Of a stretch of DNA of 35,124 nt, positions 768 through 29,113 are shown in pieces. Both the position numbers and the translations under genes were made by a program. Location of the stretch: positions 1-35,124 of IMG/VR virus record IMGVR_UViG_3300032318_000902; one strand, given 5' to 3'. Below the pieces are notes generated by a model. That model searched no databases and was not told where the DNA came from. It saw nothing but the letters and a program-made list of their open reading frames with translations. Position 1 is the stretch's first letter; each line of letters opens with the position of its first letter. Origin of the DNA: a virus. Its lineage: Duplodnaviria; Caudoviricetes.

Positions 768-770
768 TAT

Positions 771-778
771 TATATTTG
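771..778 (+). promoter_or_regulatory. Bacteroidota-type -7 promoter box (TATATTTG)
   Basis: Matches the TAnnTTTG consensus in an AT-rich gap, about 20 nt upstream of ATG 797. Confidence 0.5.
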
Positions 779-796
779 TATAATAATTTAAAAAAA

Positions 797-967: not shown

Positions 968-1968
968 GAATAGGCATTGTTTGCAATCTTAGCAGCCCAA
1001 CGACCGACTACTATCGAACGGTTAATCCATTTATCAGGCTTCGGGAAGTTTTCCCGCAGTTCACGATTAAAATGATTAATCCTGACACGGTTAAGTGGTA
1101 CGATTTTTACGACGTCGATGTTGTTATCTTCCAGCGTGCCAACGGTAATGACTTACTTGGAATGATAAACGAGGTCAAACGAATGGGTAAGAAAATTATC
1201 TTAGACCATGACGACCTATTGCACGAGGTAAGCGCCGCGAATCCAGCAAGCCAACATTTTAATAAGCCTCAGGTAAAGGAATCAGTCGAAAAGGCTTTTA
1301 AATACGCTGACTGGGTGATGACGTCAACCCCGTACCTAAAGGAATTTTACTCCCAGTTTTACGATAAAGACAAGATCACGATTGTACCTAATGCGATTGA
1401 TTTTACCGTAACACCGATGCAGCCCGTGAAAAGGGATAAGTTAATAGACGCGAAGAAACGGGTAATCTGGCGGGGAAGTCAAACGCACTTGGAAGACCTT
1501 GCCACGGTTAAAAACTTTTGGATTGAGTTGCAGAAAAACGACAAAGTTGAATTAGGTATGGTCGGCTTGGCTGATTGGCTTGGCAAAACATTATACCCTA
1601 AGGCAATCATTGTGCCGTGGAACAATTCCCTTTTCCAGTATTTTGAGATGGTGAAGAACTCAGCGCCGCACTATGGCGTATTTCCCTTAACGATTGACAA
1701 TTTCAATCAGGCGAAGTCAAATAACTTTGCGATGGAAATGTTGGTTGCTGGTTGTATTTCCTACGCGCCTGAGGAAATCAAAGAATTTAATATTCCAGGG
1801 GTGCGGACATACAAAAACGAATTAGATTTAATCCACAAATTTACTAAGGCATTGGATAAAGATGATGCGTACTTTGTTGACTTAGAGGCTGGGCACAAGT
1901 GGTTGCAGGAGGAAAGGGACTTGAAAAAGGTAAATATTTTAAGGTTGGAAATAATGGAAAGTATATAA
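964..1968 (+). CDS. Glycosyltransferase, GT-B fold (GT4-like)
   Basis: 334 aa with motifs YYRTVNP, DVVIFQR, KIILDHDDLL, ADWVMTSTPYL, IVPNAID, VIWRGSQTH and FNQAKSN, typical of phage GT-B glycosyltransferases. Confidence 0.8.
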   Translation: MRIGIVCNLSSPTTDYYRTVNPFIRLREVFPQFTIKMINPDTVKWYDFYDVDVVIFQRANGNDLLGMINEVKRMGKKIILDHDDLLHEVSAANPASQHFNKPQVKESVEKAFKYADWVMTSTPYLKEFYSQFYDKDKITIVPNAIDFTVTPMQPVKRDKLIDAKKRVIWRGSQTHLEDLATVKNFWIELQKNDKVELGMVGLADWLGKTLYPKAIIVPWNNSLFQYFEMVKNSAPHYGVFPLTIDNFNQAKSNNFAMEMLVAGCISYAPEEIKEFNIPGVRTYKNELDLIHKFTKALDKDDAYFVDLEAGHKWLQEERDLKKVNILRLEIMESI

Positions 1969-6800: not shown

Positions 6801-6985
6801 ATGACAAATACGGTTGGTACTTGACAATAAAGAAAATAGCTGAATGTGGATTGTTTAACTTGGCAGGGTTGACGCCCTTACAATCAAGCGAAAGGGCAAA
6901 TTTGTACGAGGTATTTCAATACCTTGCGTCCAAAGCGGCTGAGGATAACTTGTATCATGAAATACAAAAGCAAAGTAAAAAATGA
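6701..6985 (+). CDS. -1 programmed-frameshift extension of the chaperone (G-T-like product 5907..6985)
   Basis: After GGT TTT TTT the -1 frame is open for about 92 codons (FDEVKRELSSRFADLY...KYGWYLTIKKIAECGLF...QKQSKK). It ends at TGA 6983-6985, overlapping the next ATG, and fills the otherwise empty 6800-6982 gap. Confidence 0.8.
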   Translation, partial: FFFDEVKRELSSRFADLYASQGDAKYASASRQLNDKYGWYLTIKKIAECGLFNLAGLTPLQSSERANLYEVFQYLASKAAEDNLYHEIQKQSKK

Positions 6986-9818: not shown

Positions 9819-11017
9819 GTTACACGATAAACCCTGATACCATATCAAGCAGCCTTTACCCCGTGGCGTTTCGCTCTATTGAACCCTCGGCGGTGATTCA
9901 GCAACAAATCAATGTTTACCTTGATGGAACGCTTGAAGGATCTTTTTTGGCGGCCCAGACGGGGACAAGTGGAACGTCGGCGGTATTTGATACAAATGTT
10001 CAATCGTTCTTGATTACTCAGCTTGCACCAAAGACAAATGCGAAAACAAGTTTCTTCGGAAACCTTTACGGATTCAGCCTCACAAATAATACCGACGTTA
10101 TTTCATCATTGTATTGCACGGCGTTTAATCAAACGATTAATTCATCGGGCTTTGTCGTTACCTCCACGGCGTCGCAAAGTAGCACCACGGCTTATGTTTT
10201 ACCTTCCTTGTTTGTCGATGGGGAATATGACATGGGGGATTTTTATCAACCGTCTGCAAATCCTTTTTTATTCCTAACACAAAGGAATGATTTTATTAAA
10301 TGCAATTCCTCAGGAAACATATTTTTAAGTTACCTCGGACGTGGCACCAATGCGGCTCAATTTGAATTTTATTTTAAGTCAGGTTCTTCAGCCGTTACCA
10401 TTGTTGACAATTTAAACTCAACGGCAACAAATGATTTATATTCATTGTCCGCTGGTGTTTCAAATATATTTGGAAGTAGCGCCATTTTTCATGCAGGCAA
10501 TTTTCCAACCAATCCAGATTTATACGATTATTACGATGTTTCCGTTGGAGTTTATTCAGGCACGTACACGCGCTTAAGCGAAAGTCAACGTATTTACATT
10601 TACCCAAATTGCAACGATAACATTGAGCTTCATTGGTTTGGTAAGCACGGCGGCGCGGAAAGTTACCAATTCACGGGACTAATAATTGATAAGCAAACAA
10701 GCAACGCAGATACGATTAACCTTGCGCAAAGATGGAACATTGCCGCAAGTCCAAAAGCTAATACGTTTGATAAAAATGTGATTAAAGTTAATCAAAGGTC
10801 AAACAAAAGCAAAACGGTCACAGTGGCGGTAAGTCATGAAGATGCTTTGTACATTGCCACAATGTTTAATAGTCCTGAGGTGTACATTATTGAGAATGGC
10901 AAATATGTTAATGTTACCATTGCCAACGGGGAGATAAATACGGATAACAACAGGGCAACGGATATTGGTGTTTCATTTGAAATTATTTATAAAAATACGC
11001 CAGTCGCTCAGTTATGA
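9815..11017 (+). CDS. Tail tip / distal tail-like structural protein
   Basis: 400 aa and beta-rich, with C-terminal LHWFGKHGGAESYQF...MFNSPEVY. Lies directly upstream of the hub-like gene. Confidence 0.55.
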   Translation: MSYTINPDTISSSLYPVAFRSIEPSAVIQQQINVYLDGTLEGSFLAAQTGTSGTSAVFDTNVQSFLITQLAPKTNAKTSFFGNLYGFSLTNNTDVISSLYCTAFNQTINSSGFVVTSTASQSSTTAYVLPSLFVDGEYDMGDFYQPSANPFLFLTQRNDFIKCNSSGNIFLSYLGRGTNAAQFEFYFKSGSSAVTIVDNLNSTATNDLYSLSAGVSNIFGSSAIFHAGNFPTNPDLYDYYDVSVGVYSGTYTRLSESQRIYIYPNCNDNIELHWFGKHGGAESYQFTGLIIDKQTSNADTINLAQRWNIAASPKANTFDKNVIKVNQRSNKSKTVTVAVSHEDALYIATMFNSPEVYIIENGKYVNVTIANGEINTDNNRATDIGVSFEIIYKNTPVAQL

Positions 11018-13449
11018 TAAAACTATTTATAAATAATCAAGAGGTCGATTTAAACCAAAAGGATGTTAATGTAACGATTGATTATTCGATTGAAAATATT
11101 GAACTTGGTAACATATCGGGAGCGCACTCAAAGAGGAATGTAACATTACCCGGCACAAAGACAAACATTGAAATATTTGAAAACATTGAGACGCCTAACG
11201 TCATTGTAAATAATGCTTACAAGTTACTTCCTGCACGCCTTGAGGCAAATGGCGTGCCAATTCTTACAGGAAAAGCGCGACTTGATTCAGGCGAATTGAA
11301 TGCAATGAACCACGGATTCAAGGCGAATAATTACAAGGTCGCATTGATTGGAAACAACGCGGATTGGTTCGCGGACGTGGGTAATATTTTAGTCAGGTCA
11401 TTGGGCTGGCAGGACATAACCGTTTCCACGGCGACGGTAAAAACCAATTACAATCCATTGACGTCCGAACATTGCTTCATCTTGATGAAATGGAAAGCGT
11501 GGGAGAATGAAACGTACATTGTTGACAATGAGTTGACGCCTGCCATTTTCATTTGGCAAATATTGGAAAAGGCTTTTGCAAACAAAGGGTATCAACTTAA
11601 TAGCATTTTTAAAACAGATCCTTTTAATCGTTTGATTATTCCGATGGGTTTAAACCTTGACGCGGATTACATTAAAGACTTTGTAAACATGAGGGTCTCA
11701 AACCCTTCGCCTTCTTCCTTTGTTTATTCCTCAGGTGATTATGGCACGGTAAACATTGCATTCACAAACGAAACAACGTCACCCAACTTTGACACGGGTG
11801 GCAATTATTCAGGCGGCGTTTACACGGTCCCGATTAATGCCTTATATGAATTAATCGCTGAGTTAAACGTTACCTTAACGGCTTCCATTGGTGACTTAAA
11901 CCAATTCGCAGAACTTATATTGTTCTTTGAGGTCAACGGAAACAACGTTTCAACGTATGATTTAACCAATGAAACCACGTTAAATGATTCTATTGCCCTT
12001 GAATTCCTGGGGGACTTGGTGGAAGGGGACACGGTCCGCATGAGGCTGAGATATGAGAACGTAACATTTAACCTTGTTATCGGTGGTTCATTCTCAGTGG
12101 TGGCACAAAAGGAAGGACTGGAGGAAGGAGAAACGGTAAATTTGCAATATGTTATACCTAATAGTTGGTATGTAAAGGATATAATCGCGGACCTTACAAC
12201 CGTTTTTAATTTAGCATGGGAGACCGACGTACTAAGCAAACAAGTGTACGCATATCCTAAGGACAATTATACGGTAAGATACAGAGCCAACGCCAGCGGA
12301 GCGATAACCCTTACAACCTTTGACGGCTTTTTTAAGGATACGAATAAATATGATTTAAATACCCGTGACATTGATGGAAGCGAATTAACGATATTAGATA
12401 ATTACAAATCAAGTCAGGTACTGGCGTATGCCACGGATGACGATACGACGAACAAAGAGGAAGCAAGGCGCGGGGTTAACATTTATTCAGGGGGTTACAA
12501 TTTCCCTCAGGACAGGTTTCCAAATGGCATTGAATTTCTTTATACAAAGTTCTTTGCAAAAGCTATTCATATAAACGACGTTGCAATAACCACCGGTGGA
12601 ACTTATGGCGCCCAGATGCCGCTTGTTTTTGGTGACGATTATAACACGGTGCCAGATGCAGAACCTAATTATAATTTGGCGCCTCGTTTGCTTTATTATG
12701 CAGGAAGGCGAAGCGGCTTAGATGGATATGTAAGACTGTACGATGAAGCAAGTTCAGCGGCGTCGGCTTTTGATTTTCCCGCAGCTTTCATGGTAAATTA
12801 CAATGACCCGAGTGGCGGAGATTTTAACTTGTCCTTTTCCGATGAAGTCACAAATTATACAAATGTGATGCAAGGCGTTTTCAAAACTTTTCATTTACAA
12901 ACTTATAAACGCATTGAACTTGGTAAGCAATATACCACCTTTGTAAAATGGGAAAACAAGGACATAACACAATTATCATTCAGGCGTAAGGGAATGATTG
13001 GAAGCTCAAATTTCATCATTCAAGAATTAGAATACAATCCTAAAAGCAATGGCCCAGCAAGAACGGTTATCTTATACGATGAAAAGCCAAATGTAAATGA
13101 CCTCAGTAAAGTAAGTAATACGATAACTTTGGCAGGCGCACCGCCTCAGGGTGGAACGGTAACAGGATCTGGAAGCGGCTTGGTTGGAGCAAATGGGGCG
13201 ACGGTAAACATTCAGTTATCTTATACGCCGTTCCTTAACTCAATGACCAATGTACTTGTATTGGCGGTTAACTCAGGTATAACGCAAGTAAGCAACACGA
13301 ATGCAAATGTACTTGTATTCCAGAACGGGCAAAAGTTAATACCAACGGTTCAATATATTATCAGTGGTTCAACCATTGGTATTAATGTGAATACCCATTA
13401 CGATGGGGCAAATTATGAAGTTATTGTAAACGGAGTAACAAAAGGATAA
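11014..13449 (+). CDS. Baseplate hub / central tail tip protein
   Basis: 811 aa with LFINNQEVDL...SKRNVTLPGTKTN, TPAIFIWQILEK, KDIIADLTTVFNL and PRLLYY. Lies upstream of the tape measure gene. Confidence 0.65.
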   Translation: MIKLFINNQEVDLNQKDVNVTIDYSIENIELGNISGAHSKRNVTLPGTKTNIEIFENIETPNVIVNNAYKLLPARLEANGVPILTGKARLDSGELNAMNHGFKANNYKVALIGNNADWFADVGNILVRSLGWQDITVSTATVKTNYNPLTSEHCFILMKWKAWENETYIVDNELTPAIFIWQILEKAFANKGYQLNSIFKTDPFNRLIIPMGLNLDADYIKDFVNMRVSNPSPSSFVYSSGDYGTVNIAFTNETTSPNFDTGGNYSGGVYTVPINALYELIAELNVTLTASIGDLNQFAELILFFEVNGNNVSTYDLTNETTLNDSIALEFLGDLVEGDTVRMRLRYENVTFNLVIGGSFSVVAQKEGLEEGETVNLQYVIPNSWYVKDIIADLTTVFNLAWETDVLSKQVYAYPKDNYTVRYRANASGAITLTTFDGFFKDTNKYDLNTRDIDGSELTILDNYKSSQVLAYATDDDTTNKEEARRGVNIYSGGYNFPQDRFPNGIEFLYTKFFAKAIHINDVAITTGGTYGAQMPLVFGDDYNTVPDAEPNYNLAPRLLYYAGRRSGLDGYVRLYDEASSAASAFDFPAAFMVNYNDPSGGDFNLSFSDEVTNYTNVMQGVFKTFHLQTYKRIELGKQYTTFVKWENKDITQLSFRRKGMIGSSNFIIQELEYNPKSNGPARTVILYDEKPNVNDLSKVSNTITLAGAPPQGGTVTGSGSGLVGANGATVNIQLSYTPFLNSMTNVLVLAVNSGITQVSNTNANVLVFQNGQKLIPTVQYIISGSTIGINVNTHYDGANYEVIVNGVTKG

Positions 13450-16385: not shown

Positions 16386-16649
16386 ATGTGTAATTGTATG
16401 AAAACAGGAAACATCTGGGGGGAACTTGGTTCACGCATACCAGAGGAATACAAGGCGCAAGTTACCGCCACGGTCAACAGGACTTACAGGGTTTTGAGCA
16501 TTGACCCGAATGACATGGATTATTTGTTCAATATTTATAACAATTTTGTGAATCATTATGAGCCTGAGCGGCGAAATTGTCCCGCGTGTCGGACAAAAGT
16601 AGTCGGTAAAATGAGGCAAATAGTGCAATATTGGAATGAAAATGTATGA
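16386..16649 (+). CDS. Small Cys-motif (CxC, CxxC) protein, possibly Zn-binding
   Basis: MCNCMK...RRNCPACR. Confidence 0.65.
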   Translation: MCNCMKTGNIWGELGSRIPEEYKAQVTATVNRTYRVLSIDPNDMDYLFNIYNNFVNHYEPERRNCPACRTKVVGKMRQIVQYWNENV

Positions 16650-16992
16650 ATTTGAAATGATTAACGAGGATTTATTGCAGGATTTTACGCATGAAATCCT
16701 TAATAAATACAGTGCATTTTGCCAAAAGGAAGGTATTACGCCCAGTTTCTTTCATCTTATTTCCTTCCTCGTAAAAACAGATGTGGTGAAGGAAAAGACG
16801 GTTGCAAAATATATGGTCATGCAGCTTTATCCAAATAGCCTTTATTCAAATGATTCAAAAATGGATGCCATGATGGAAATAAGCATACGAACGGGTATTT
16901 CAAAGAAGCACGTTTATAATATGGTTCAGCATCCTGAAAGGTTTGGTTATCAAATCAAGCAAAAAAGAAAAGATAAAAACGATACCGAGTAA
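16636..16992 (+). CDS. Putative HTH transcription regulator
   Basis: C-terminal KMDAMMEISIRTGISKKHVYNMV fits a helix-turn-helix. Confidence 0.55.
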   Translation: MKMYEFEMINEDLLQDFTHEILNKYSAFCQKEGITPSFFHLISFLVKTDVVKEKTVAKYMVMQLYPNSLYSNDSKMDAMMEISIRTGISKKHVYNMVQHPERFGYQIKQKRKDKNDTE

Positions 16993-16997
16993 TTTTG
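16990..16997 (+). promoter_or_regulatory. Bacteroidota-type -7 promoter box (TAATTTTG) for the head operon
   Basis: Matches TAnnTTTG, about 21 nt upstream of ATG 17019. Confidence 0.5.
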
Positions 16998-17018
16998 TAA
17001 ATAAATTATTTTTCTTTT

Positions 17019-18398
17019 ATGACATACGCCGATTATCCAGATGCCGCAAAGAACAACGCACGACGCGCACTTGACCACAAGGAAAAGAACGGGTCTGATT
17101 GTGGTACGCTTGTCGGCTGGCAACGTGCGAATCAAATCGCCAACGGTGAGGGATTGTCGGAAAAAACAGTGCAGCGTACTTATTCCTTTTTAAGCCGCGC
17201 GGAAACGTATGACCAGGGCAAATACTTTGATGAAGACGGTTCTGAAATTTGCGGCTCAGTAATGTATGACGCATGGGGTGGAAGCGCTATGAGGGTTTGG
17301 GCTGAGGCGAAATATAAAGCAATCCAAAAGGACAAAGTAAAAAACATGGCAAAAGTAAGTATAGATATTTTAGGAGAAATTTCGGAATCTGTTAATTCTT
17401 ACAACTCGGTAAGGGCAAAGATTAACCAGGCGAACGGGCAGCCAATTAATTTGACAATATCCTCAGGCGGTGGCTCAGTCACCGAGGGAATGGGTATTGC
17501 TGATTTAGTTGCAAATTACCCGGAAGAAACCACGGCAACAGGAATCGGCTTGGTAGCAAGCATTGCAACGGTTGTACTGTTGGCAGCGGATAATGTTAAG
17601 ATGACTGAGAACGCTTTTATGATGATCCACCGACCTTGGAGTTATACGATGGGTAACGCCGACGAACTTGAGGCAACGGCTGAATTATTGGACAAGATGG
17701 AATCAAAGTTACTTGACATTTACACGGCGGCGGTTCTTAAGCGCAGGGGATATCAAAATAACCTAAAAGAAATTATTACGAATATGATGGCAGCCGAAAC
17801 ATGGCTGACCGCTCAGGAAGCATTAGAATTTGGCTTCATTGATGAAATTGTGAAAGTTGGCGAAAAAAACATAGATATGTTACCGTTGCAAAATAGCCTA
17901 AACAAGTTCTTGAATGTACCAGCCGCATTATTAACAAATACAAAAAAAGAAGATGACATGGGTAATTCCATTTTAGAAAAAATCAAAAGCCTTCTTAATA
18001 GCATAGATGAAACTCCCGTTGTGGAAAATGTTATTGAGGAGGAGAAAGTAATTGAAGAGCCTGAGATGGATGAAGTTGAAAAGGCTATTTCCATGTTAAA
18101 GGAAAAAGGTTACATTGTAATGTCACCCGATGAAATGGACGCTATTAACTCAAAGCAAAAAGAGGAAATGGAATCTATGTACAAAAAAAGTGATGAGCAA
18201 AAGAACTCAATCGGTGAAATCGAAAGCGTTTTAGAAACCTTATCAACCGAACTGGTGGCACTAAGAAATCAAGTAAAAAAAGGCGTTGGTCTTCCTTCGG
18301 GCGGCACAACATCTGAAAAGATTATTGAAACAAAAGCAAAATCGAGTCCGTTTGATTCTTTTGCTGGATTAGTTAAAAACAAAATTTCACAAAGATAA
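17019..18398 (+). CDS. ClpP-type prohead protease with an extra N-terminal domain and a C-terminal scaffold-like region
   Basis: LTISSGGGSV, GLVASIAT (catalytic Ser), MMIHRP (His) and ETWLTAQEALEFGFIDEI. Acidic coiled-coil C-terminus. About 109-aa N-terminal domain. Confidence 0.9.
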   Translation: MTYADYPDAAKNNARRALDHKEKNGSDCGTLVGWQRANQIANGEGLSEKTVQRTYSFLSRAETYDQGKYFDEDGSEICGSVMYDAWGGSAMRVWAEAKYKAIQKDKVKNMAKVSIDILGEISESVNSYNSVRAKINQANGQPINLTISSGGGSVTEGMGIADLVANYPEETTATGIGLVASIATVVLLAADNVKMTENAFMMIHRPWSYTMGNADELEATAELLDKMESKLLDIYTAAVLKRRGYQNNLKEIITNMMAAETWLTAQEALEFGFIDEIVKVGEKNIDMLPLQNSLNKFLNVPAALLTNTKKEDDMGNSILEKIKSLLNSIDETPVVENVIEEEKVIEEPEMDEVEKAISMLKEKGYIVMSPDEMDAINSKQKEEMESMYKKSDEQKNSIGEIESVLETLSTELVALRNQVKKGVGLPSGGTTSEKIIETKAKSSPFDSFAGLVKNKISQR

Positions 18399-18871
18399 TG
18401 GCATTCAATCCAACCGCCCAAAATGTGAACAGTTTTGACAACGATTATACATACGTTGGTCGAAACAGTTTAAACAGAACAAACCCTTACGCCAACGTTG
18501 ACGGCTTAAATGCTGAAAAGTTGTACGGGGTTGATACCTTTGAAGACCGCATTCCTGTGTCGGTGACATACGCTATCGCTTCAGCGGGTGACAGAACTAC
18601 GATTACGCCTATTTACGGTGTGACAAGTGCTTCCAGTTATTTAAAGTTTAACTTGATTGACGAAAGTGGCAATGAAGCGCACGGACGCTGGATTTCTTCA
18701 GCACCTTCAGCAGCCTTTGACATTTCGACGACGGCGTTAAACCACGCAAATGATTGGAAGGCTTTCTTTGCCACGGCTAAGGCTGGAGCAAAAACCGAGT
18801 TCTCATTTAAAATTGAATCGGCAGCGCAGTTAACAAACACCACTGCAACGATTACATACGCAAACCTTTAA
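18398..18871 (+). CDS. Probable head decoration/structural protein
   Basis: 157 aa and beta-rich, lying between the protease and the capsid gene. Confidence 0.5.
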   Translation: MAFNPTAQNVNSFDNDYTYVGRNSLNRTNPYANVDGLNAEKLYGVDTFEDRIPVSVTYAIASAGDRTTITPIYGVTSASSYLKFNLIDESGNEAHGRWISSAPSAAFDISTTALNHANDWKAFFATAKAGAKTEFSFKIESAAQLTNTTATITYANL

Positions 18872-18883
18872 AATTAAATTAAA

Positions 18884-19867
18884 ATGCCAATAACAGAGGT
18901 AAGCCAATTAGACGTATCCTTCAGAGGTACGGAGGCGAATAACATATTTTTAGAGCCAGTTTTCTTTGACGATGATTTAAGGGGTCAATTTCGTATCCTC
19001 GGTAACGTTGCCAATAAAAAGAAAATGGTTTTCGTTCAGCAACTGGAAAACATTGTAAGAAAATACTCGGGCTGCGGTTTTAACCCCGTGGGCTCGGTGT
19101 CGATTTACGATAGAACAATCGACGTTGAAAAGATGAAGGTTGATTTAGAAATGTGCTGGGATGAATTTGAAGACACGGTTTTTGAGGAGTTGTTGAAAAC
19201 GGGTACGCGTCTTCCAGATGTTTCGGGTACGTTGATTGAAAACATTCTATTGACCCGTACACAACAGGCAATTCGTCAAGACGTTCAACGCTTAAGCTAC
19301 TTCGGTCAGCAGTCATCTAATAATCCAAACTATGATGCTTTAGACGGTCTTTGGACTGTTTATTATCCTGAGTTGGTTACCAATGCCTTAGTGCCAAGAA
19401 CAAACACGGGATCAGGTTCAGACCTTGCTTCGGGTGATGGTTTTGCAATCCTTAGGGCTATTTATGACCAAGCACCTTTGCAGTTAAAAGGTTTACCAGC
19501 GGCACAAAAAGTGTTTAATGTTACTGGTTCTGTTTACACTCAGCTTCGTGAAGACATTGAAGAAGGTGGCGGCGGTGACTACGGTCTATTGCAATTAATC
19601 AACGGGGTTGAGCAATTTACGTTCCGTGGTGTTCCTGTTGTTGCTCAATGGAGATGGGATGAGATTTTAACAAATCTTGGAACAACTAAGCCTCACTATG
19701 TGGAATATACAACGCCACAAAACAAGGTGCTTGCAACCGACGTGTTAAGCCCTGAGACGGCTTTAGAACTTTGGTACGACCAGAAAGACGAAAAGGTATA
19801 TATTAAGGCTCGTTTTAAAATGGGTGTTAATTATATTCACCATTCATTAATTAGCTTAGGCTACTAA
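18884..19867 (+). CDS. Major capsid protein
   Basis: 327 aa downstream of the protease/scaffold. Contains CGFNPVGSVSIYDRTIDVEKMKVDLEMC, DGLW and VYIKARFKMGVNY, consistent with an HK97-fold capsid. Confidence 0.85.
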   Translation: MPITEVSQLDVSFRGTEANNIFLEPVFFDDDLRGQFRILGNVANKKKMVFVQQLENIVRKYSGCGFNPVGSVSIYDRTIDVEKMKVDLEMCWDEFEDTVFEELLKTGTRLPDVSGTLIENILLTRTQQAIRQDVQRLSYFGQQSSNNPNYDALDGLWTVYYPELVTNALVPRTNTGSGSDLASGDGFAILRAIYDQAPLQLKGLPAAQKVFNVTGSVYTQLREDIEEGGGGDYGLLQLINGVEQFTFRGVPVVAQWRWDEILTNLGTTKPHYVEYTTPQNKVLATDVLSPETALELWYDQKDEKVYIKARFKMGVNYIHHSLISLGY

Positions 19868-19877
19868 TCAATAAAGA

Positions 19878-20426
19878 ATGAGTTCAATAACAAGCGGTTG
19901 GCTTAACCAATGCGTCGATGGAACTTGCGCTGGTGGTATCGGTAAACTTTATATCGCCAATGCGAATCAAGTTACCAGTATCACCACCAATGCCACGGCG
20001 GCGGTTACGGCAATCACAATGTCTTCCACGGCTTCAGTATTTTACGAGGTGGAATTTAGGGACAACTCAGGCGCGTTCACGGAAACGGTAACGCAAGACC
20101 CTGATACTTTATCGGTTGCCGTTGAGCAAAGTTTGGTTGGTGTCATTAATTGCCGTGACCAGGAATTGCGTAACCTTATTCAAGATATGGCAAATCAGGC
20201 TTGCGGCTTAGTTTGTGTTCACGTTGAAAACACGGGCAACTATTGGATCTGGGGCGCTGAGACGATTGGGGCAAAGAAAAGACCAGCAAGGTTAACAAAT
20301 GTCGAAGGTTTGTCAGGTGCTTTGTTTACCGATTCAAACCAAGAAACATTGACGATTGCATGCCGAACAACGGAAAAAGCAAGATTTATTGTTAATGGCG
20401 CAACCGTAATGGCTGCATTAGATTAA
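19878..20426 (+). CDS. Major tail (tube) protein
   Basis: 182 aa with C..GGIGKLYIA, SGAFTET, VHVENTGNYWIWG and SGALFTDSNQETLT, a pattern I associate with Bacteroidota siphophage tail tubes. Confidence 0.7.
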   Translation: MSSITSGWLNQCVDGTCAGGIGKLYIANANQVTSITTNATAAVTAITMSSTASVFYEVEFRDNSGAFTETVTQDPDTLSVAVEQSLVGVINCRDQELRNLIQDMANQACGLVCVHVENTGNYWIWGAETIGAKKRPARLTNVEGLSGALFTDSNQETLTIACRTTEKARFIVNGATVMAALD

Positions 20427-20432
20427 TAAACA

Positions 20433-20657
20433 ATGATAGTCAGGGAAAAAAGTAAGTTGATGATTTACGTCGGGGCTGATCCAACGGGAAAGGCGGGAAT
20501 ACTTAAAAAGGCTATCGGAGATTTTACACAAGCAGAATTAAGGGGTTGGTATAGTGCCAGCCCCGCATCTGTTAGCCAACACGTCATTTTTACTCCTGAG
20601 AAAAAAACCTATGAGCCAAATAAAGAAAACGATTCAAGCGACACCGAACAGGGGTAA
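20433..20657 (+). CDS. Hypothetical protein
   Basis: 74-aa ORF after an A-rich translation initiation region. Its end overlaps the portal start. Confidence 0.6.
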   Translation: MIVREKSKLMIYVGADPTGKAGILKKAIGDFTQAELRGWYSASPASVSQHVIFTPEKKTYEPNKENDSSDTEQG

Positions 20658-22041
20658 TAGAAATTTAAAAAGAAATCAAAGCCCTTTATTGGCTTCGGTG
20701 ACTTTAGATACCTCAAACACTATGTTAGTGCAAGAGGACATTTTCAATGAACCTTCAAGGGAGCGGCTTGATTTCACGGGGGCAAAGTGGGTAAGATTTT
20801 TCACTCAGAAAGATGACTTTCTTAAAAGTTTAATAGCCATCGTAAATAATTCGCCAACACTTAGGCGTATTATTGAGGATAAAGTAAACATGGTTGTAGG
20901 TGACGGATTTATCCCTATGAAAGGGAAATCTAACACATTACTTACAACCTCAATGAAAGGCGAAGTAATAACCGATGATTCCTTAAACGATATTGAGGAA
21001 GTTATAGGTCAGGTCAATTTACATTCCCAAAATTTACAAGAAGTATTAGGTGCTTTGGCTTTTGATTACGATGCTTTTGGTAATTGTTTTGCAGAAATTG
21101 TAAGGGGAAAGGTTGGCAGTCAGCCTTTCACTTACATTTATCATGTACCCGTTTACAACATTGGCATCAGAAAAGCCGAGGCTGACCAGATAATTCGTTC
21201 TATTGGCATTTATGACAACTGGGAAGAAGTGCCGTTGACGACCGAGGGCACGTACTACGAGAACGAAGGCTTTAGGGAAATACCAATTTATCCTGATTTT
21301 AAGAAATTGGAAGACGGAACGGAGCGTTCAATTATCCACGTTAAGCAATACGCGGCTGGGTATTTTTACTTTGGTTTACCTGAGTGGATTGGCGCGAAGA
21401 TGTGGGCTGAAATGGAATACCGTATTCAGCGGTTTAATACAAGCAAGTTTGAAAATGGCTTCATGCCGTCGGGTATATTACAGTTCTTCGGTTCAATGAC
21501 GCAGACGGAAGCCAAAAGCCTTGTTGAGGGAATTGAATCAAAGTTTACAGGCATGGGCAACAATCATAAATTGTTTGTCCAGATTTTACGAGATGAAAAA
21601 TTAAAAGCAAATTGGATTCCCACGTCAAAAGAAAACGAGGGCGAATTTTTAAACTTGCAAAACTTGGCAGCCTCAGCGATTGTCGTGGCTAACCGATGGA
21701 GCAAGTCACTTGCGGGCTTTGCAACGTCGGGACAACTTGGCACTAATCAGCAGATACGTCAAGAAATGGAATACTTGCAAAACACGGTTATTAAGCCGAG
21801 ACAAAACCTTTTGTTATCAAAGATTATTAACCCATATTTAAACGAAATAAGCGCGTATAATCCAGCGTTTGTTGACGTTACCTTTGGCATTTCTAACACT
21901 TTGCCCGTGTCCTTCATGGGTGATATTGCGGTTGAGCAGAATTTGTCAATGAATGAGAAAAGAGAAATATTAGGTTATTCCCCTATCGAAATAGAAACAA
22001 CAATAACACCAACCAATGAGCCAACTGATACAACCGAGTGA
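20611..22041 (+). CDS. Portal protein
   Basis: ATG 20611 is preferred over GTG 20554. Contains NNSPTLRRII, DYDAFGNCFAEI, YFGLPEW, FENGFMPSGI and EKREILGY. Confidence 0.88.
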   Translation: MSQIKKTIQATPNRGNRNLKRNQSPLLASVTLDTSNTMLVQEDIFNEPSRERLDFTGAKWVRFFTQKDDFLKSLIAIVNNSPTLRRIIEDKVNMVVGDGFIPMKGKSNTLLTTSMKGEVITDDSLNDIEEVIGQVNLHSQNLQEVLGALAFDYDAFGNCFAEIVRGKVGSQPFTYIYHVPVYNIGIRKAEADQIIRSIGIYDNWEEVPLTTEGTYYENEGFREIPIYPDFKKLEDGTERSIIHVKQYAAGYFYFGLPEWIGAKMWAEMEYRIQRFNTSKFENGFMPSGILQFFGSMTQTEAKSLVEGIESKFTGMGNNHKLFVQILRDEKLKANWIPTSKENEGEFLNLQNLAASAIVVANRWSKSLAGFATSGQLGTNQQIRQEMEYLQNTVIKPRQNLLLSKIINPYLNEISAYNPAFVDVTFGISNTLPVSFMGDIAVEQNLSMNEKREILGYSPIEIETTITPTNEPTDTTE

Positions 22042-22555
22042 AGTAATAGCTGGCGGCGTGGCACGACCAACCCCAGCGGATATAAGAATAGATAAGTCAC
22101 TTATTAGCCCTCACATTCAAGATGCAGAATATCGTTGGATTGTGCCTGCCGTTGGCTTAACGTTTTACGATACCCTTGTTTCGGACAAAGGAAGTTCCAC
22201 GGCGTTTACCTCAACGGCTTACCAGCAACTATGGGACAGTCAATTAAAATCCTTTTGCGCCAATGCCGTCCTATATGAGGCATCTCCATATATTGTAATG
22301 CAGATGGGTTCAAATGGTTTATATACCCTTGATAATGAATACGGTCAAAACGTGGGCGTTGAGGGTTTAAAGTTTTATCAAGATACTTTATTACAAAGGC
22401 TTGACGTAAAGAAAAAAAGGATTAAAGATTATTTGTGTTCATGTGCTACGGGGTTAACGGGTTTTGTTTCAACTGCTATTGGTTGCCCTGATTCAACTTG
22501 CGATGAGCATGAGGAAATAAAAGACATTTATAACACAATGGGAATAGTATTATGA
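22016..22555 (+). CDS. Head-tail adaptor-like protein
   Basis: 179 aa following the portal. Contains PHIQDAEYRWIVPAVGLTFYD and is helical. Confidence 0.6.
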   Translation: MSQLIQPSEVIAGGVARPTPADIRIDKSLISPHIQDAEYRWIVPAVGLTFYDTLVSDKGSSTAFTSTAYQQLWDSQLKSFCANAVLYEASPYIVMQMGSNGLYTLDNEYGQNVGVEGLKFYQDTLLQRLDVKKKRIKDYLCSCATGLTGFVSTAIGCPDSTCDEHEEIKDIYNTMGIVL

Positions 22556-24279
22556 GCGAAGAAATAAAACCAAAGAAAGAAAAACGATTCCTAAAAACAT
22601 TGGGCAAAGTAGGTGAAATTTTATTGCAGGAGGTATTATTAAAACTAGGGAGTAGTATAATTAAAAAGATTGGAGGCAAAAAAACTTTGCCTTCAATTCT
22701 TTTTATATTCCTTTCGTTTACCCTTTTCGCCCAATTCCCAAACACAGGAAATAAACAAAGACTTGGTTTTCAGACCACGGGCGACGGATTGACGTGGCGC
22801 GGGTCAATATCCGACACGGTTTCCATTCAACCGATAAACAACCAAAACGCATGGGTCATTCTCGATACAATCAACCTTAAATTTTATTCATTTGATTTTA
22901 CTTCGAATACTTGGAATGCGTTGCCTCAAGTAACAAATATTGATACAACTTCATTAAGCAATCGGATAAATCTAAAGCTAAATTTAAGCGACACGGCTTC
23001 GATGCTTACAAATTACTTGCGCACAGGAACGGCGGCTTCGACGTATCAAACAATTTTAAGCAACCCAGTCACGGGAACGGGAACAATAAATTATATTCCT
23101 AAATTTACAAGTACGGGAAGTACTATCGGTGATGCAAATTTATTTACAAATGGCAATAGATTTGTTCAAAACGAAAATACAGACCAGTCTTTTGGTTGGG
23201 ATAAAATGCTTAATACATCAAGTCCTTTTTTTGGAAACAATGTAAAAGCTGGAAGTACTAATGAAACAATACAAAGAGTAGCATCAACAACAAATTTCAA
23301 TCCATCTGCTATAATATTTGGATTACAAAGAACAAATAACGGAACTGGGGCAAGTTCTTTAGGTGGTATAAATTTTATGACTACTTCAGGAAATCCTTCA
23401 GGTGATATAAATCCAATAGACTCGTCAAGAATGTTTATCGAGCCAAGAGGTAATATTGGAATAGGTAAAATGCAACCTTATTCATTTGTAAAATTAGATG
23501 TAAATGGAAATTTAGCGGTAAATGGAATTTCTTATAATTTTAATAATGTAAATAATAGAAATGGATATTTATATTTAGATCATGCTGGAGTTCAAGTTTG
23601 GAAAATAGGACTATTTAATGACAATAACAGTACTTTAAGTTTAGGTAATGGAGGTAATTTTAATAGAATATTTAATATAACAAATAATGGAAATATTGGC
23701 ATAAACGATACAACGCCTTCATTTACCTTAGATGTCAATGGCACCCTCGGTGTAACAGGCGCAACGACATTGTCCGCACCTTTGACCGTTAATTCCTCAG
23801 CCGTGTTTAATGAAGGCTCAACCGATTCAGACTTTCGCGTTAAAAGCGACGGCAACGTAAACATGGTTTTCGTGGATGCCTCGACGGATCGCGTGGGCAT
23901 TGGAACAAATGCGCCAACAAAGGAACTTGACGTAAATGGTGAGTTAAGAATTGGCACGGTATCAACAACGCCTTCGGCTTTACTTGGAAAAAACGGGAGC
24001 AATGTGGTGGGTGAGGTTACAAGTGTTAATCAAAGCGGATTCATGTATGTTGCAAAAAGATTAAATAATACTACCGATGCAGCTGGCGAGTTGATTTTTG
24101 CTCATGGTTTATCTTGGACGCCAACAGTTGTATTTTCTCAAGTTTTATACGGAACAAACTTATACATTAATCCAAAATCAGTTGATGGTACAAATATTAC
24201 TTTAAGAGTTTACGATAATGATGGAAATGCAGTTGCAAATACATCTATTAACGCCTTTCAATGGATGGCAATTAAATAA
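22552..24279 (+). CDS. Tail-fibre-like protein with an apparent N-terminal signal peptide
   Basis: Fibre repeats GNIGIG..LDVNG, GNIGINDTTPSFTLDVNG and DRVGIGTNAPTKELDVNG. C-terminal tip FAHGLSWTP...FQWMAIK. aa 43-61 read KKTLPSILFIFLSFTLFA|Q. Confidence 0.75.
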   Translation: MSEEIKPKKEKRFLKTLGKVGEILLQEVLLKLGSSIIKKIGGKKTLPSILFIFLSFTLFAQFPNTGNKQRLGFQTTGDGLTWRGSISDTVSIQPINNQNAWVILDTINLKFYSFDFTSNTWNALPQVTNIDTTSLSNRINLKLNLSDTASMLTNYLRTGTAASTYQTILSNPVTGTGTINYIPKFTSTGSTIGDANLFTNGNRFVQNENTDQSFGWDKMLNTSSPFFGNNVKAGSTNETIQRVASTTNFNPSAIIFGLQRTNNGTGASSLGGINFMTTSGNPSGDINPIDSSRMFIEPRGNIGIGKMQPYSFVKLDVNGNLAVNGISYNFNNVNNRNGYLYLDHAGVQVWKIGLFNDNNSTLSLGNGGNFNRIFNITNNGNIGINDTTPSFTLDVNGTLGVTGATTLSAPLTVNSSAVFNEGSTDSDFRVKSDGNVNMVFVDASTDRVGIGTNAPTKELDVNGELRIGTVSTTPSALLGKNGSNVVGEVTSVNQSGFMYVAKRLNNTTDAAGELIFAHGLSWTPTVVFSQVLYGTNLYINPKSVDGTNITLRVYDNDGNAVANTSINAFQWMAIK

Positions 24280-24285
24280 ACAAAC

Positions 24286-24879
24286 ATGAAAAAAATATTA
24301 TTCCTTTTCCTTTTCCCCTTGTTTTCCTTCGCACAGGATACAATCATTATTAAAAAGGTGTTCATTGACCCAGACACGGTTTGGCAAGTAAAGCAAATCA
24401 CGGATGCCGATAATTCAAGTTTAACCGTGTTTGCAGATTCTAATTTGATTGTCCCATTCCTTACCAACGACTTGGTTGATGATGCACGGAAAATGGCTGA
24501 TGCTTTGAACCTGATTGAAAGGCAAAACAAATTTATTGCCAATGCAATTAAGTTAGACAAATCATTAACCAACGGAAAAATACAGGGTTCTTTTGATTAT
24601 CTGCAAGAGCAATTTAAAAGGTTTTGGCTCGGTAATTATCAAGCCATTGCCAACGGGACAAAGGTTGTGGCGGGTGCTGAAATATTTGTAAATCAAACTG
24701 GAAGCCTGAGGATTAAAATCGGGGAATCTTTAAACAAGCCTTTAGTTATCATTTCAGACACCTATGGTTATATTTCCAATTACCCAAATCAAGGCGATAG
24801 AATGGTGATTTATTTAACGAAGGCAAATGTTTATAAGGACTTTGAAAATAAATTAATCCTGAGAAAATCAAAAGAATGA
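24286..24879 (+). CDS. Putative secreted protein (Sec/SPI signal peptide)
   Basis: MKKILFLFLFPLFSFA|QDTIII is a classic Bacteroidota signal peptide with Gln at +1. No lipobox Cys. Central helical segment. Confidence 0.75.
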   Translation: MKKILFLFLFPLFSFAQDTIIIKKVFIDPDTVWQVKQITDADNSSLTVFADSNLIVPFLTNDLVDDARKMADALNLIERQNKFIANAIKLDKSLTNGKIQGSFDYLQEQFKRFWLGNYQAIANGTKVVAGAEIFVNQTGSLRIKIGESLNKPLVIISDTYGYISNYPNQGDRMVIYLTKANVYKDFENKLILRKSKE

Positions 24880-25280
24880 AAGCAATAATACTAAAACTAT
24901 TACATCAAAGTTATGAGTTCTTTGCCGTGGCATTAACTACGGGCTTTATTTTTTCGTTTATCGTCCCGATAAAAGGATTCCTTTTATTCACGGTCGCGGT
25001 TGTTTTTGCTGATACAATTACGGGAATCAAAGCGGCAAAAAAAGAGGGGCAAAAAATAAGCAGCAAAGGATTGTACCGAACAACGGAAAAGATTGTTGTA
25101 TATTTTGTATCAATCCTTATTTTTGAAGGAGCAAAAAATACTTTTTCAATTCCCGTTCCAATTACTTACATGGTGGCTATGATGATTGCAGGGACTGAGT
25201 TGTTCAGCATTGCAGAAAATGTAAAGCGGATCACTGGCGTTGAACTCGGAACATTAATATCAAGATTTTTTAAACGTTAA
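24876..25280 (+). CDS. Holin (phage holin family 4-like)
   Basis: Multiple TM segments with DTITGIKAA...ISSKGLYRTTEK...ELFSIAENVKRITG. Confidence 0.85.
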   Translation: MKAIILKLLHQSYEFFAVALTTGFIFSFIVPIKGFLLFTVAVVFADTITGIKAAKKEGQKISSKGLYRTTEKIVVYFVSILIFEGAKNTFSIPVPITYMVAMMIAGTELFSIAENVKRITGVELGTLISRFFKR

Positions 25281-25290
25281 AACAAATAAA

Positions 25291-25584
25291 ATGCAGACTA
25301 ATTTAAAAGAAGCCCTAAAATCGGCTGATACTATTAAGTCACCTTTGGGCGACGTGGCTTGTTATTCAATGAACTTTGCGGAGCTGGCTTCGGAAATAAA
25401 TGTTCATCTTGAGGGAAATAAAGTGAAATTCACTTGGCGCGAATACATCCAATTGGCTCAAATCATTTGGGATAAGATTAAGGAGACATCTAAAGAATGT
25501 GCTGGAAAGGAGATTTCAGTGAGTTTACCTCCCAAATTATCAATCGTAGGTATGGCTTTTGCATTGATTGGATTTAAGTTATAG
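25291..25584 (+). CDS. Hypothetical lysis-cassette protein with a hydrophobic C-terminal tail
   Basis: 97 aa between the holin and the endolysin, ending LSIVGMAFALIGFKL. Confidence 0.7.
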   Translation: MQTNLKEALKSADTIKSPLGDVACYSMNFAELASEINVHLEGNKVKFTWREYIQLAQIIWDKIKETSKECAGKEISVSLPPKLSIVGMAFALIGFKL

Positions 25585-25614
25585 GCGCAGAAGAATCGCT
25601 ACCTTAGGCAGCCG

Positions 25615-25642
25615 AGGGGAGTAGATTGATTTCTATTCCCCT
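25615..25642 (+). promoter_or_regulatory. 11-bp stem-loop upstream of the endolysin start
   Basis: AGGGGAGTAGA-ttgatt-TCTATTCCCCT (one G-U pair), 15 nt before ATG 25658. No U-tract. Confidence 0.5.
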
Positions 25643-25657
25643 TAAAAATATAAAAAT

Positions 25658-26320
25658 ATGAAAGCATCTAAATTTTGTGTATTCCTTGACGCGGGCCATG
25701 GAGGCATTGACGCAAAGAAAAAATTACCTTACAATTATACGACGTACCCGTCAAAGTGCGCTCAGCATAACAACGCAAAGTTCCACGGTTACGGTTGGTT
25801 CTTTGAAGGCGTGTTCAACCGCGACGTTGCGGCAAAGATTGAGCAGTATTTAATTGACTGGGGGTTTTCTGTGGTGCGCGTTTACGATCCTGTCTTAGAC
25901 GTTTCATTGACTAAGCGCGTGGCAAAGGCAAATATCAACGCCCAGAATTATGAAGCTTCGTTATACCTCAGCATTCACGGCAACGCGGGAACTTCGCCCA
26001 ATGCAAGGGGATTCGAGGTGTTCACGAGCAAAGGTAAAACAAGGTCGGACATTTACGCGGAGTTCCTTTTCAAAGAGGTTCAGGAAGCATTCCCTAAGTG
26101 GGTGTATCGCATGGATACCACGGACGGCGATAAGGATAAGGAAGAAAGTTTCTTTGTTATTACCCAAACAAATATGCCAGCGGTACTCAGCGAAAACGGC
26201 TTCTTTACAAATTACCACGACGCGCTAATGATGTTTGACCCGGTGTTTCAAAATACGTTGGCTTTGTCTCATGCTCGGGCGGTCGTGGATTATGCGAAAA
26301 CGCAAGGGGTAATATTTTAA
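25658..26320 (+). CDS. Endolysin, N-acetylmuramoyl-L-alanine amidase (Amidase_3)
   Basis: LDAGHGG, E (FFEGVFN), LSIHGNA and PAVLSENGFFTN zinc/catalytic motifs. Confidence 0.93.
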   Translation: MKASKFCVFLDAGHGGIDAKKKLPYNYTTYPSKCAQHNNAKFHGYGWFFEGVFNRDVAAKIEQYLIDWGFSVVRVYDPVLDVSLTKRVAKANINAQNYEASLYLSIHGNAGTSPNARGFEVFTSKGKTRSDIYAEFLFKEVQEAFPKWVYRMDTTDGDKDKEESFFVITQTNMPAVLSENGFFTNYHDALMMFDPVFQNTLALSHARAVVDYAKTQGVIF

Positions 26321-26322
26321 AT

Positions 26323-26350
26323 AAAAAAGGGCTGGTTCAAATGCCAGCCC
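26323..26350 (-). terminator. Rho-independent terminator at the convergence of the two gene blocks
   Basis: GGGCTGG/CCAGCCC stem (26329-26350) followed by T6 on the - strand. Confidence 0.75.
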
Positions 26351-26384
26351 CGATATACACATCAACAATTCAACAAATTAGTAA

Positions 26385-26669
26385 TCAATCAATTATAAGT
26401 TTTATAAGCCTTGCGGCTGATTCTTTCAAAATATCGGTTTCCTTTGAATGATAAAGTTGATAACAAATGCTTATCATTCTTTCTTTATTCATTGATTGAT
26501 AGGTGGGCATCGTCTCAGGAATCAAAGGATTAAGGTAAAAATTTATTACCGATTGCTTGCTATTTACCGTGTCGGCAAAGCGGATCGGAGCTGGGCGCGC
26601 GTTATAACATCTTTGCGCTTCCTTCCATTGTTCATTGGTTAAGCCGTCTGTTATTTCGTTATTTTTCAT
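26385..26669 (-). CDS. Hypothetical protein
   Basis: 94-aa ORF overlapping the upstream gene. Confidence 0.7.
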   Translation of the reverse strand: MKNNEITDGLTNEQWKEAQRCYNARPAPIRFADTVNSKQSVINFYLNPLIPETMPTYQSMNKERMISICYQLYHSKETDILKESAARLIKLIID

Positions 26670-28270: not shown

Positions 28271-29113
28271 TTAAAAAACATTGTATTCTTTCTTCAAAGG
28301 GAAGTTATCCCTTTTGATCTGCCAGTACTCAGCCATTAATGAGGCACGGAATTTGTAATCGGTGTCAGTGTGATAACCTGATTTATAAACACATTTACAA
28401 ATGGATTCATACAACCGTATCCCTTTCATCTTGTAATTTGCCTTCTTACATTCCGCGTACCTTCCTGAGTTCAAAACACCCGCCCAAAGCTTCATGCCTT
28501 CTTCCGTGCTGGATGCCTTCATGAACTTGGCACGAATGTATTTGTCCCGTCCGCGAATGACCTCCCGTGTTTTGTAAGTAACTGACTTTTGATTTTTCAA
28601 AGCCTTGACGCCGCCAGCGTTGGCGTGCTTGCGCCAAAGTTCGGTTTCAACCCCTGAGGTGGTTGCCTCAATGATGAAAAATGAATAGATCATGGAAACG
28701 GGAAAGTCGGTCAGATAATGCACGTTCATTAACATGGCTTCGTAAGAATAGGCAAGCCATATACGACGCATTTTAAAAAGGTCAATTTTATCAAGGTTTC
28801 GGAAACCTTTGCCTTCAAGATTTTTCCTTAATTCATGGATATTCATTTTACGTATTTCCCAACCGTATGATCTTGAGCCATAAGCCATTTCGTTGACCTC
28901 GCTTTTTTCTTCCTTTGCTGGGAATGTCAGCGTTGTAATTTTGTGAACATATATCGTATCGCGTTCAATAATTGGCACGAAGGAAGTATAATGATATTGA
29001 GTATTTATTGGGGAGTAAATCAACCCAACCACGAAGGCAACGCCAACGCCTGCGGCGACTTGGTAAGGTAGGCGTTTGTTTTGTGGAACGTAATCAATAA
29101 TTCTGTCTTTCAT
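28271..29113 (-). CDS. Membrane-anchored GH73-like (glucosaminidase/FlgJ-type) peptidoglycan hydrolase
   Basis: N-terminal TM VAAGVGVAFVVGLIY. Catalytic-like IIEA, NAGGVKA, TREV...AKF and GYHTDTDY (compare the GH73 YATDPxY motif). Confidence 0.75.
   Translation of the reverse strand: MKDRIIDYVPQNKRLPYQVAAGVGVAFVVGLIYSPINTQYHYTSFVPIIERDTIYVHKITTLTFPAKEEKSEVNEMAYGSRSYGWEIRKMNIHELRKNLEGKGFRNLDKIDLFKMRRIWLAYSYEAMLMNVHYLTDFPVSMIYSFFIIEATTSGVETELWRKHANAGGVKALKNQKSVTYKTREVIRGRDKYIRAKFMKASSTEEGMKLWAGVLNSGRYAECKKANYKMKGIRLYESICKCVYKSGYHTDTDYKFRASLMAEYWQIKRDNFPLKKEYNVF

Follow-up and report, generated by a model that had tools for sequence, protein, structure and literature searches.

In textbook tailed phages, every virion part is made in the cytoplasm, and we know of no tail fibre with a lectin tip or an S74 chaperone that carries a signal peptide. 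The original prediction for this locus was that a tail-fibre-like gene and its neighbour both encode Sec/signal peptidase I (SPase I) signals, which raises the question of where these fibres go and whether they become part of the particle. We analysed the whole 35,124-nucleotide stretch (IMG/VR record IMGVR_UViG_3300032318_000902; hereafter, the window) and its relatives. The explanation that we favour, at a probability of roughly two in three, is that the fibres would be exported by Sec, cleaved, probably glycosylated and attached to a dock on the particle at lysis. A 2026 preprint describes the P22 tailspike as lacking a signal peptide.

The gene for fibre 1 (22552..24279, plus strand; 575 aa) encodes a leader and signal peptide, an N-domain, a stalk, repeats and a tip, and is followed by the partner ORF (24286-24879), as had been described from the letters alone. 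It is a tail-fibre-type protein. We confirmed three GIG..LDVNG fibre repeats within 23455..23940 (plus strand; 23455-23508, 23695-23742 and 23893-23940, or residues 302-319, 382-397 and 448-463), and residues 421-467 matched PHROG tail fibre 9942 (E 6e-9); fibre 2 and long forms of fibre 1 also had PHROG tail-fibre matches. The C-terminal beta-sandwich tip (24025..24276, plus strand), whose last 77 residues were modelled by AF2 at a pLDDT of about 87-95, resembles H-lectins and phage fibre tips. Nearly all top matches in the fold search were of these two kinds, with middling Z scores (AP22 gp53 fibre, Z 7.5, rmsd 2.5, 77 aligned; Pam1 RBD, Z 7.3; R-pyocin fibres, Z 6.2-6.5). The conserved mature N-domain (22732..22923, plus strand), a predicted anchor common to fibres 1 and 2, contains two invariant D-T pairs in the alignment and forms 505 clusters at 50% identity. 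Between it and the repeats lies the stalk, a short DT-helix; in related fibres, stalks reach up to 1,400 aa. The family combines a constant N-domain with shuffled tips and a place in the tail or late module. Pfam Peptidase_S74 was present in 18 of 28 hand-picked family representatives, including second fibres, and an S74-like end was recognised by pattern in 79 of the best 150 representatives. These S74 domains, together with repeats of the type found in Bdellovibrio MAT fibres, suggest that fibre 1 is a homotrimer. No Pfam family matched fibre 1 at E 0.01, PDB sequence searches gave nothing useful, and among cultured phages only 46-50-aa pieces of three Roseobacter phage fibres matched. Contigs from another study's DNA run match 22295-22856, 22827-23297 and 23380-26400 with 0, 0 and 1 differences, respectively, so the unusual N-termini are not assembly errors. 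RNA-library contigs also cover pieces of the region, without showing transcription.

Residues 43-61 of fibre 1 read KKTLPSILFIFLSFTLFAQ and contain the h- and c-regions of a predicted Sec/SPase I signal (22684..22731, plus strand), with cleavage at A60|Q61. We called signals with a rule of our own (a hydrophobic window, no acidic residue and small residues at -3 and -1), and Q at +1 was partly built into the search profile. An h-region followed by A|Q was present in 80 of 80 related loci listed, many of them near-duplicates. Among distant relatives, taken from the best 150 representatives at 50% identity (4 truncated), all 146 scorable proteins, that is, those with 14 or more residues ahead of the mature domain, had a signal, with the A-x-A|Q geometry and Ala at -1 in 144 of them. 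Textbook signals of 16-18 aa are found on second fibres, on partners and on a divergent fibre 1, and no conserved start codon was found downstream of the fibre 1 h-region. The A-x-A|Q geometry is shared with Bacteroidota SPase I substrates, which are cleaved before Gln (PMC5837995); here it occurs on phage late genes. Because the signals are conserved, the view of fibre 1 and its partner as predicted Bacteroidota-type Sec/SPase I substrates is well supported, and export of the fibres is very probable on sequence grounds.

The signal is preceded by a basic amphipathic leader of 44 aa (22552..22683, plus strand), whose start codon shares bases with the stop of the gene before it (ATGA); residues 1-60 have a net charge of +7 and a hydrophobic moment of 0.65. 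The idea that the leader is a separate ORF or a mis-called start was rejected on the basis of purifying selection (pN/pS 0.22 over 46 distinct loci) and the missing start past the h-region. Of the 46 loci, 42 have a TTG codon at -15, ahead of the h-region; the second phage group lacks it. The leader had been proposed to delay or regulate export, but it is lineage-specific rather than general: the divergent relative G416 has a plain 18-aa signal instead, and second fibres never carry the long form. The ESPR (PF13018) of autotransporters and cationic lysis peptides such as phiKT gp28 are likewise long basic N-terminal extensions with an amphipathic helix, although the leader has no match to PF13018. 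We regard it as an optional add-on; its likeliest effect, on weak grounds, is to retard export or to hold the precursor at the inner membrane.

The exported partner (predicted; 24286..24879, plus strand; 197 aa) has its signal at 24286-24333, with cleavage at A16|Q17. A low-confidence model (pLDDT 51) shows beta-hairpins, a long helix and a small C-terminal beta domain, the last with weak fold matches to PBP/aminopeptidase C-domains (Z 5.4-6.0); the one other match was a viral protein without a name, and the ESM Atlas gave none. Q17, D18, T19, D42 and D51 are invariant across four subfamilies that share 18-22% identity with the window's member, and we found 818 homologues. None came from a cultured phage, and of three hits in 301 cellular genomes, one was a phage contig and two were weak matches on the signal region. 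The partner does not look like a spanin: its signal is of the Gln type, and it lacks both a Cys lipobox and any other hydrophobic segment. A lipobox scan of the window, G403 and G002:C10 (a pattern without a positive control) detected no ORF resembling a spanin. Co-export of the partner, part of the original prediction, is well supported by conservation, but an obligatory or tip-specific role did not. Of 53 loci, 4 lack it, and the same partner types occur with different tips instead of varying with them, so we rejected a tip-specific chaperone. In partner-less phages it was found elsewhere in 0 of 5 records, all of them fragments, and comparison with the DT stalk repeats gave no clean pattern. 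For the partner, the most likely role, a reading we hold weakly, is that of an accessory in the periplasm that helps fold, hold or join the fibre base.

Fibre 1 and its partner here represent the short version of a conserved cassette, comprising fibre 1, an optional fibre 2 and an optional partner, then the holin, that recurs in two groups of siphophages whose head modules differ. The fibre had been placed between a head-tail adaptor and a holin. Upstream is a DUF6712 protein (Pfam; 22016..22555, plus strand), a probable adaptor from its position after the portal, and directly downstream, as in every case, is the lysis module (24876..26320, plus strand; holin PF05105 24876-25280, a 97-aa ORF 25291-25584 and amidase PF01520 25658-26320). 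The order before the holin is kept in both groups. In the second group it runs tape measure, a 740-aa gene, a 123-aa dock gene, fibre 1, (fibre 2), partner and holin, which, judging by gene order, puts the fibre in the usual receptor-binding-protein slot. These phages are a common and abundant group of uncultured lake siphophages. The best 15 amidase matches are all Bacteroidota phages and the sole capsid match is a Bacteroides phage, which together with the predicted cleavage before Gln makes a Bacteroidota host likely; two related contigs are binned in different phyla (Sediminibacterium versus 'Pseudomonadota'). A search limited to tyrosine integrases (PF00589) found none in five relatives at least 98% complete (control, 14/14), suggesting that the phages are lytic.

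A dock for the exported fibres is predicted at the C-terminus of an 811-aa tail protein without a signal (11014-13449), which adjoins the tape measure gene and has no homologue in any cultured phage. This dock, delimited by alignment (13216..13446, plus strand), is a 75-aa Ig-like domain; sequence searches gave only weak Ig-like matches (Shr-like_HID in 30 of 40 members, best E 1e-4). Two further copies lie within fibre 1 in precisely those loci where another exported fibre comes next (63/63 loci). Fibre 2 follows in 21 of 21 loci with two docks and in 0 of 34 without; among the latter, the window and L001 represent a single phage, and a run of N interrupts L096. Eight of eight new loci agreed. 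Complete genomes fit the same count, with two N-domains and three docks in G417, and one of each in G416 and G418. Three tip classes occur in both dock states, and a tree of upstream DNA shows 11 switches of dock state, at least 6 of them forced. The dock and fibre 2 may still move together as a single linked unit. The domain sits on three different structural genes without signals: the end of the tail protein, a stand-alone gene and an insertion in the adaptor of the divergent relative L222. From this pattern, we infer a dock for the fibre N-domain that would tie exported fibres to the cytoplasm-built particle; that the two bind each other is, on balance, the slightly better bet. Two internal docks and a fibre 2 would then give a branched fibre. 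In branched receptor-binding complexes (T4 gp10, CBA120 TSP4 XD and G7C gp66-gp63.1), the first fibre has extra domains to which the second protein's N-terminus is inferred to dock. Those complexes differ from the cassette in being assembled in the cytoplasm without signals, and their domains had no sequence match to the dock. The dock pattern in this abundant lake group is the window's own new contribution.

A cultured phage offers a parallel. Cellulophaga phage phi18:3 (GenBank KC821620) encodes gp085-gp087, consecutive genes before the lysis genes whose products have signal-like N-termini ending S|Q, A|Q and A|Q; gp086 has one GIG..LDVNG repeat, and the record annotates all three as structural proteins by experimental MS/MS, without remarking on signals. 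They resemble the window's cassette in position, Gln-type signals, repeat and structural annotation, but phi18:3 belongs to another phage family (Pachyviridae), there is no detectable shared N-domain, and the glycosylation motif considered below is not enriched. Co-purification could account for their detection by MS in phi18:3 preparations. Of the three fates originally offered for the exported fibre, late attachment to the virion is favoured by the dock pattern, the receptor-binding-protein position in the second group and this proteomics annotation, and we consider attachment probable.

If exported, the fibre stalks would probably be O-glycosylated by the host. The Bacteroidota motif, D-S/T-A/I/L/V/M/T, is generally occupied in non-cytoplasmic proteins (PMC12871550, a review whose main text makes no mention of phage); here it occurs on phage late genes. 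In 75 fibre-1 stalks, we counted 660 motifs against 229 expected (about 2.9-fold), compared with 1.24x in the last 250 aa of the same fibres and 0.36x for an E-S/T control, the related sequences not being independent. Mature proteins of distant relatives reached 2.4x, and beyond the N-domain 70 of 140 distant representatives exceeded the expected count. The window's own proteins were not significantly enriched (fibre 1, 5 versus 2.1 expected, p 0.052; partner, 2 versus 0.65, p 0.12), and cytoplasmic classes were also above 1 (adaptor 2.3x, 97-aa ORF 3.4x, capsid 1.9x, type-B 740-aa protein 1.9x). The strongest competitor concerns only this step and is compatible with virion attachment: export may serve folding or timing alone, with the D-S/T pairs being structural (helix caps or beta-turns) and unglycosylated. 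Consistent with this, the reverse motif is also enriched in stalks (1.47x), many sites precede helices, and neither the phi18:3 proteins (0.3x) nor six of seven chromosomal look-alikes are clearly enriched. However, stalk motifs occur in many unrelated contexts, followed by A, T, L, S or I and almost never by K, E or G, and the general occupancy of such motifs also counts against it, so that we think the structural account unlikely, at about one chance in four.

Less probable is that the exported fibres are soluble receptor blockers or decoys, released free at lysis to mask receptors on debris and neighbours or to block superinfection; the benefit would be that progeny are not wasted on either. 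T5 Llp is a functional precedent for receptor blocking, the cassette lies beside lysis genes in both groups, and a signal-less connector-lectin fusion also encoded by these phages (6982-8658) could be the true receptor binder. Decoys, however, need neither 1,400-aa stalks nor an invariant N-domain, nor a dock pattern tied to signal-less structural genes. A phage-encoded adhesin on the infected cell surface, with the partner as anchor, is a little more doubtful again. As PMC10769870 describes them, Bdellovibrio MAT fibres are cell-surface adhesins with the same anatomy of signal peptide, constant N-domain, mosaic trimeric shaft and variable S74 or beta-sandwich tips, and their capping-loop motif (V-G-G/N-x-x-x-P-x-x-x-L) resembles the GIG..LDVNG repeats; they differ in being chromosomal and cell-displayed, with an N-domain of about 130 aa and no virion dock. 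Bacteroidota chromosomes also encode signal + GIG + S74-type proteins, one of which, in a Sediminibacterium bin, has the same DT stalk repeats. Our comparison with MAT is one of how the proteins work, as the fibre genes here lie in phage late operons. That position and the missing tyrosine integrase (5/5 complete relatives) speak against display on a lysogen, the fate we disfavour among those proposed, as do a partner that lacks a lipobox or membrane anchor and is sometimes absent, and an N-domain that a search of 401 genomes of the Sediminibacterium bin's phylum detected just once, on a phage contig. [quoted passage not shown] The atypical leader and the rule-based signal call might speak for this, but it would have to explain the A-x-A|Q geometry and the textbook signals elsewhere as one coincidence in three different proteins.

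Taking these results together, we return to late attachment of exported fibres. The core particle and tail would be built in the cytoplasm, with the dock on a signal-less tail protein; the fibres would pass through Sec into the periplasm, be cleaved before Gln and probably be O-glycosylated there on their stalks by the host; lysis would then mix the compartments, and the fibres would clip onto the Ig-like dock through their shared N-domain. AP22 gp53, the R-pyocin fibre and T5-type S74 fibres are comparable in tip fold, in S74 in second fibres and in PHROG matches. We found no description of such an export-then-attach route for tailed phages in the literature, nor a precedent for exported fibres in that on HFTV1.

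Because the fibres and partner bear a conserved export signal, the host-recognition parts of these phages likely mature outside the cytoplasm. A broader proposal, which we advance tentatively, is that Bacteroidota tailed phages build virions in two compartments, a cytoplasmic core and a periplasmic kit of modular, branched, host-glycosylated fibres that snaps onto a portable dock at lysis; evolution would have moved this dock between tail tip and neck, and progeny would therefore wear the last host's glycan. The dock rule points to a defined contact that can be tested, and for the general claim phi18:3 is available in culture. If the fibres are indeed exported and joined to the particle at lysis, a second compartment would take part in virion assembly, glycosylation in the host's periplasm could affect both host range and the particle surface, and 'hypothetical' genes that carry signals and lie next to lysis modules would need to be reinterpreted as virion parts.

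Two adjacent genes ahead of the holin, one for a tail fibre (fibre 1, 22552-24279, 575 aa) and one for a partner protein (24286-24879, 197 aa), encode predicted Sec/SPI signal peptides with cleavage at A60|Q61 and A16|Q17, respectively. All features that the original prediction had listed for 22552-24879 were found in the sequence, and the DNA encoding the two N-termini was reproduced in an independent run. From 126 candidate stretches, 110 encoded a relative; the hydrophobic segment and A|Q were present in all of the best 80 of these 110. A profile search with the mature N-terminal domain of the fibres (N-domain) returned 505 clusters at 50% identity. Among the best 150, four were truncated, and the N-domain directly followed a signal-like segment in all 146 that could be scored, with signal peptides called by our own rule rather than by SignalP. 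In Bacteroidetes, about 71% of SPase I substrates have Gln immediately after the cleavage site (PMC5837995). The signal-bearing fibre and partner are real and conserved.

These genes belong to a cassette (fibre 1, optional fibre 2, optional partner) common to two siphophage groups. In group A, which includes the window, the order is portal, adaptor, cassette and holin; group B, with an HK97-type head, has tape measure, 740-aa and 123-aa genes, cassette and holin. Fibre 1 ranged from 575 to 1,424 aa, and fibre 2 carries the same N-domain behind a plain 16-18-aa signal. Shafts and tips were shuffled among loci. The window's fibre 1 tip has a high-confidence predicted fold resembling phage fibre tips and H-lectins; Peptidase_S74 was found in 18 of 28 hand-picked representatives and in none of ten fibre-1 proteins from the loci. 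The partner, of about 200 aa, was present in 49 of 53 loci extending to the holin, and its four subfamilies (identity down to 18%) all kept the signal, Q17, D18-T19, D42 and D51. Partner types 197 and 204 never accompanied fibre 2 (0/27), and types 200 and 203 usually did (19/22).

A basic, amphipathic 44-aa leader (22552-22683) precedes the fibre 1 signal in groups A and B alike, starting at an ATG that overlaps the upstream stop codon. Constraint on the leader matches that on the N-domain (pN/pS 0.22 against 0.21), and it had no ESPR match in Pfam. The leader is dispensable: in a divergent relative, a fibre 1 with a short signal is likewise followed by partner and holin. Slower export, membrane tethering and a lysis-related action of the cleaved peptide are guesses at its role. 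Codons around the h-region start (22666-22704) showed little synonymous variation when 46 loci were compared, and 42 of these loci have a TTG at -15, possibly reflecting a nucleotide-level signal or a second start.

Similar anatomy also occurs on cells. Bdellovibrio MAT fibres, as described in PMC10769870, resemble the exported phage fibres but serve cells, as do chromosomal Bacteroidota proteins combining a signal, GIG and an S74-type end (matches in 3 of 151 genomes). Two rival readings, that the exported fibres are adhesins or that they are decoys, therefore stay alive. On the phage side, Cellulophaga phage phi18:3 encodes gp085-087 upstream of its lysis genes; these three proteins have Gln-type signals at their N-termini and a structural annotation based on MS/MS, a detection that may represent co-purification.

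Attachment to the virion is suggested by a 75-aa Ig-like domain, here called the dock, which forms the C-terminus (13216-13446) of a signal-less 811-aa tail protein (11014-13449). In group B, it makes up the 123-aa gene immediately ahead of fibre 1; in one related locus (L222:5791-6633), it is inserted midway in the head-tail adaptor, and the contig stops before the next gene. Fibre 2 came next in all 21 loci whose fibre 1 has two internal docks and in none of 34 whose fibre 1 lacks them, leaving out loci in which fibre 1 ran off the contig, fewer than 300 bases followed or the last 400 aa were identical; in this count, the window and L001 represent a single phage, and Ns interrupt L096. The rule was upheld in eight of eight new loci and in the whole records G416-G418. 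Plain linkage of docks and fibre 2 is an incomplete explanation, because three tip classes, whose place is between docks and fibre 2, are each seen in both dock states, and because a 50-row tree built from upstream DNA shows 11 changes of state (at least six forced). The simplest reading of the gene content is that the dock binds the N-domain common to both fibres: the virion copy would hold fibre 1, and the internal copies of fibre 1 would hold fibre 2. Branched receptor-binding complexes are arranged in a comparable way.

The fibres of the cassette family are probably glycosylated, judging from their motifs. Bacteroidota non-cytoplasmic proteins undergo periplasmic O-glycosylation at D-S/T-hydrophobic motifs, according to PMC12871550. 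Relative to shuffles, this motif reached 2.88x in the stalks of 75 fibre-1 proteins but 1.24x over the last 250 aa of these proteins (stalk controls: E-S/T 0.36x, reverse motif 1.47x), although the sequences are related and hence non-independent. Fibre 1 has 12.7 motifs per 1,000 aa, compared with 3.3 over the remaining 47 genes of the window. Ratios above 1 also occurred in some cytoplasmic protein classes, and enrichment in the window's own proteins was non-significant (fibre p 0.052, partner p 0.12). The motif reached only 1.32x in the bodies of distant relatives and 0.3x in phi18:3 gp085-087, and only one of seven chromosomal look-alikes was clearly enriched. We do not treat glycosylation as a general reason for export. 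A chromosomal signal-bearing protein in a Sediminibacterium bin (L162:1476-7947, G001:C7) has the same D-T helical stalk repeats, an S74-like end and 17 motifs (3.2x), a likeness that suggests exchange between host secreted fibres and phage fibres.

The lysis module (24876-26320) comprises a holin, a conserved 97-aa ORF and an amidase. No recognisable spanin pair was found in this module or in those of relatives G403 and G002:C10; the 97-aa ORF and the cleaved amphipathic leader are candidates for outer-membrane breakage. An early-region ORF at 28271-29113 (minus strand, opposite that of the lysis genes) encodes an N-terminal membrane segment with weak endolysin-like PHROG matches (E 2e-5), and G403 has a similar TM-bearing ORF.

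The virus record is 87% complete, with terminase, tape measure, Clp protease, portal, holin and amidase genes; apart from the possible source, seven lake, freshwater or sediment studies contained runs with at least half of 20600-26300. Its host is probably a member of the Bacteroidota, from protein matches. The 15 best amidase matches were all Bacteroidota phages (the largest group over all 123 records being Bacillus phages), and the single cultured capsid match was a Bacteroides phage at 23%. Two related contigs were binned under conflicting labels, Sediminibacterium and Pseudomonadota, so the bins do not decide the host. No tyrosine integrase was found in five of five near-complete relatives. 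Gene order in 16386-22555 is unusual, with tail genes ahead of the protease, capsid and major-tail-like genes, and portal and adaptor last before the cassette. At the start of the late strand (63-1968, plus strand) lie a gene for a glycosyltransferase (PHROG 7162) and, next to it, one for an unannotated 234-aa protein. At 6982-8658 (plus strand), a connector/terminator-like N-terminus is joined to a lectin-like domain (PF09206; PHROG virion structural protein), a possible neck appendage lacking a signal peptide; some group A relatives have a short counterpart without the fusion, and in group B a comparable fusion involves a different connector gene (L158:11270-12823).

Our best reading, to which we give a probability of about two in three, is that the fibres are exported, probably glycosylated, and dock onto the virion at lysis. 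No description of Sec-exported tail fibres was found in the literature searched, from which subscription journals were mostly missing, and against that literature such a route would be new in kind. The window's addition is the dock rule, whose importance is that it connects proteins that leave the cytoplasm with a virion protein that stays there.
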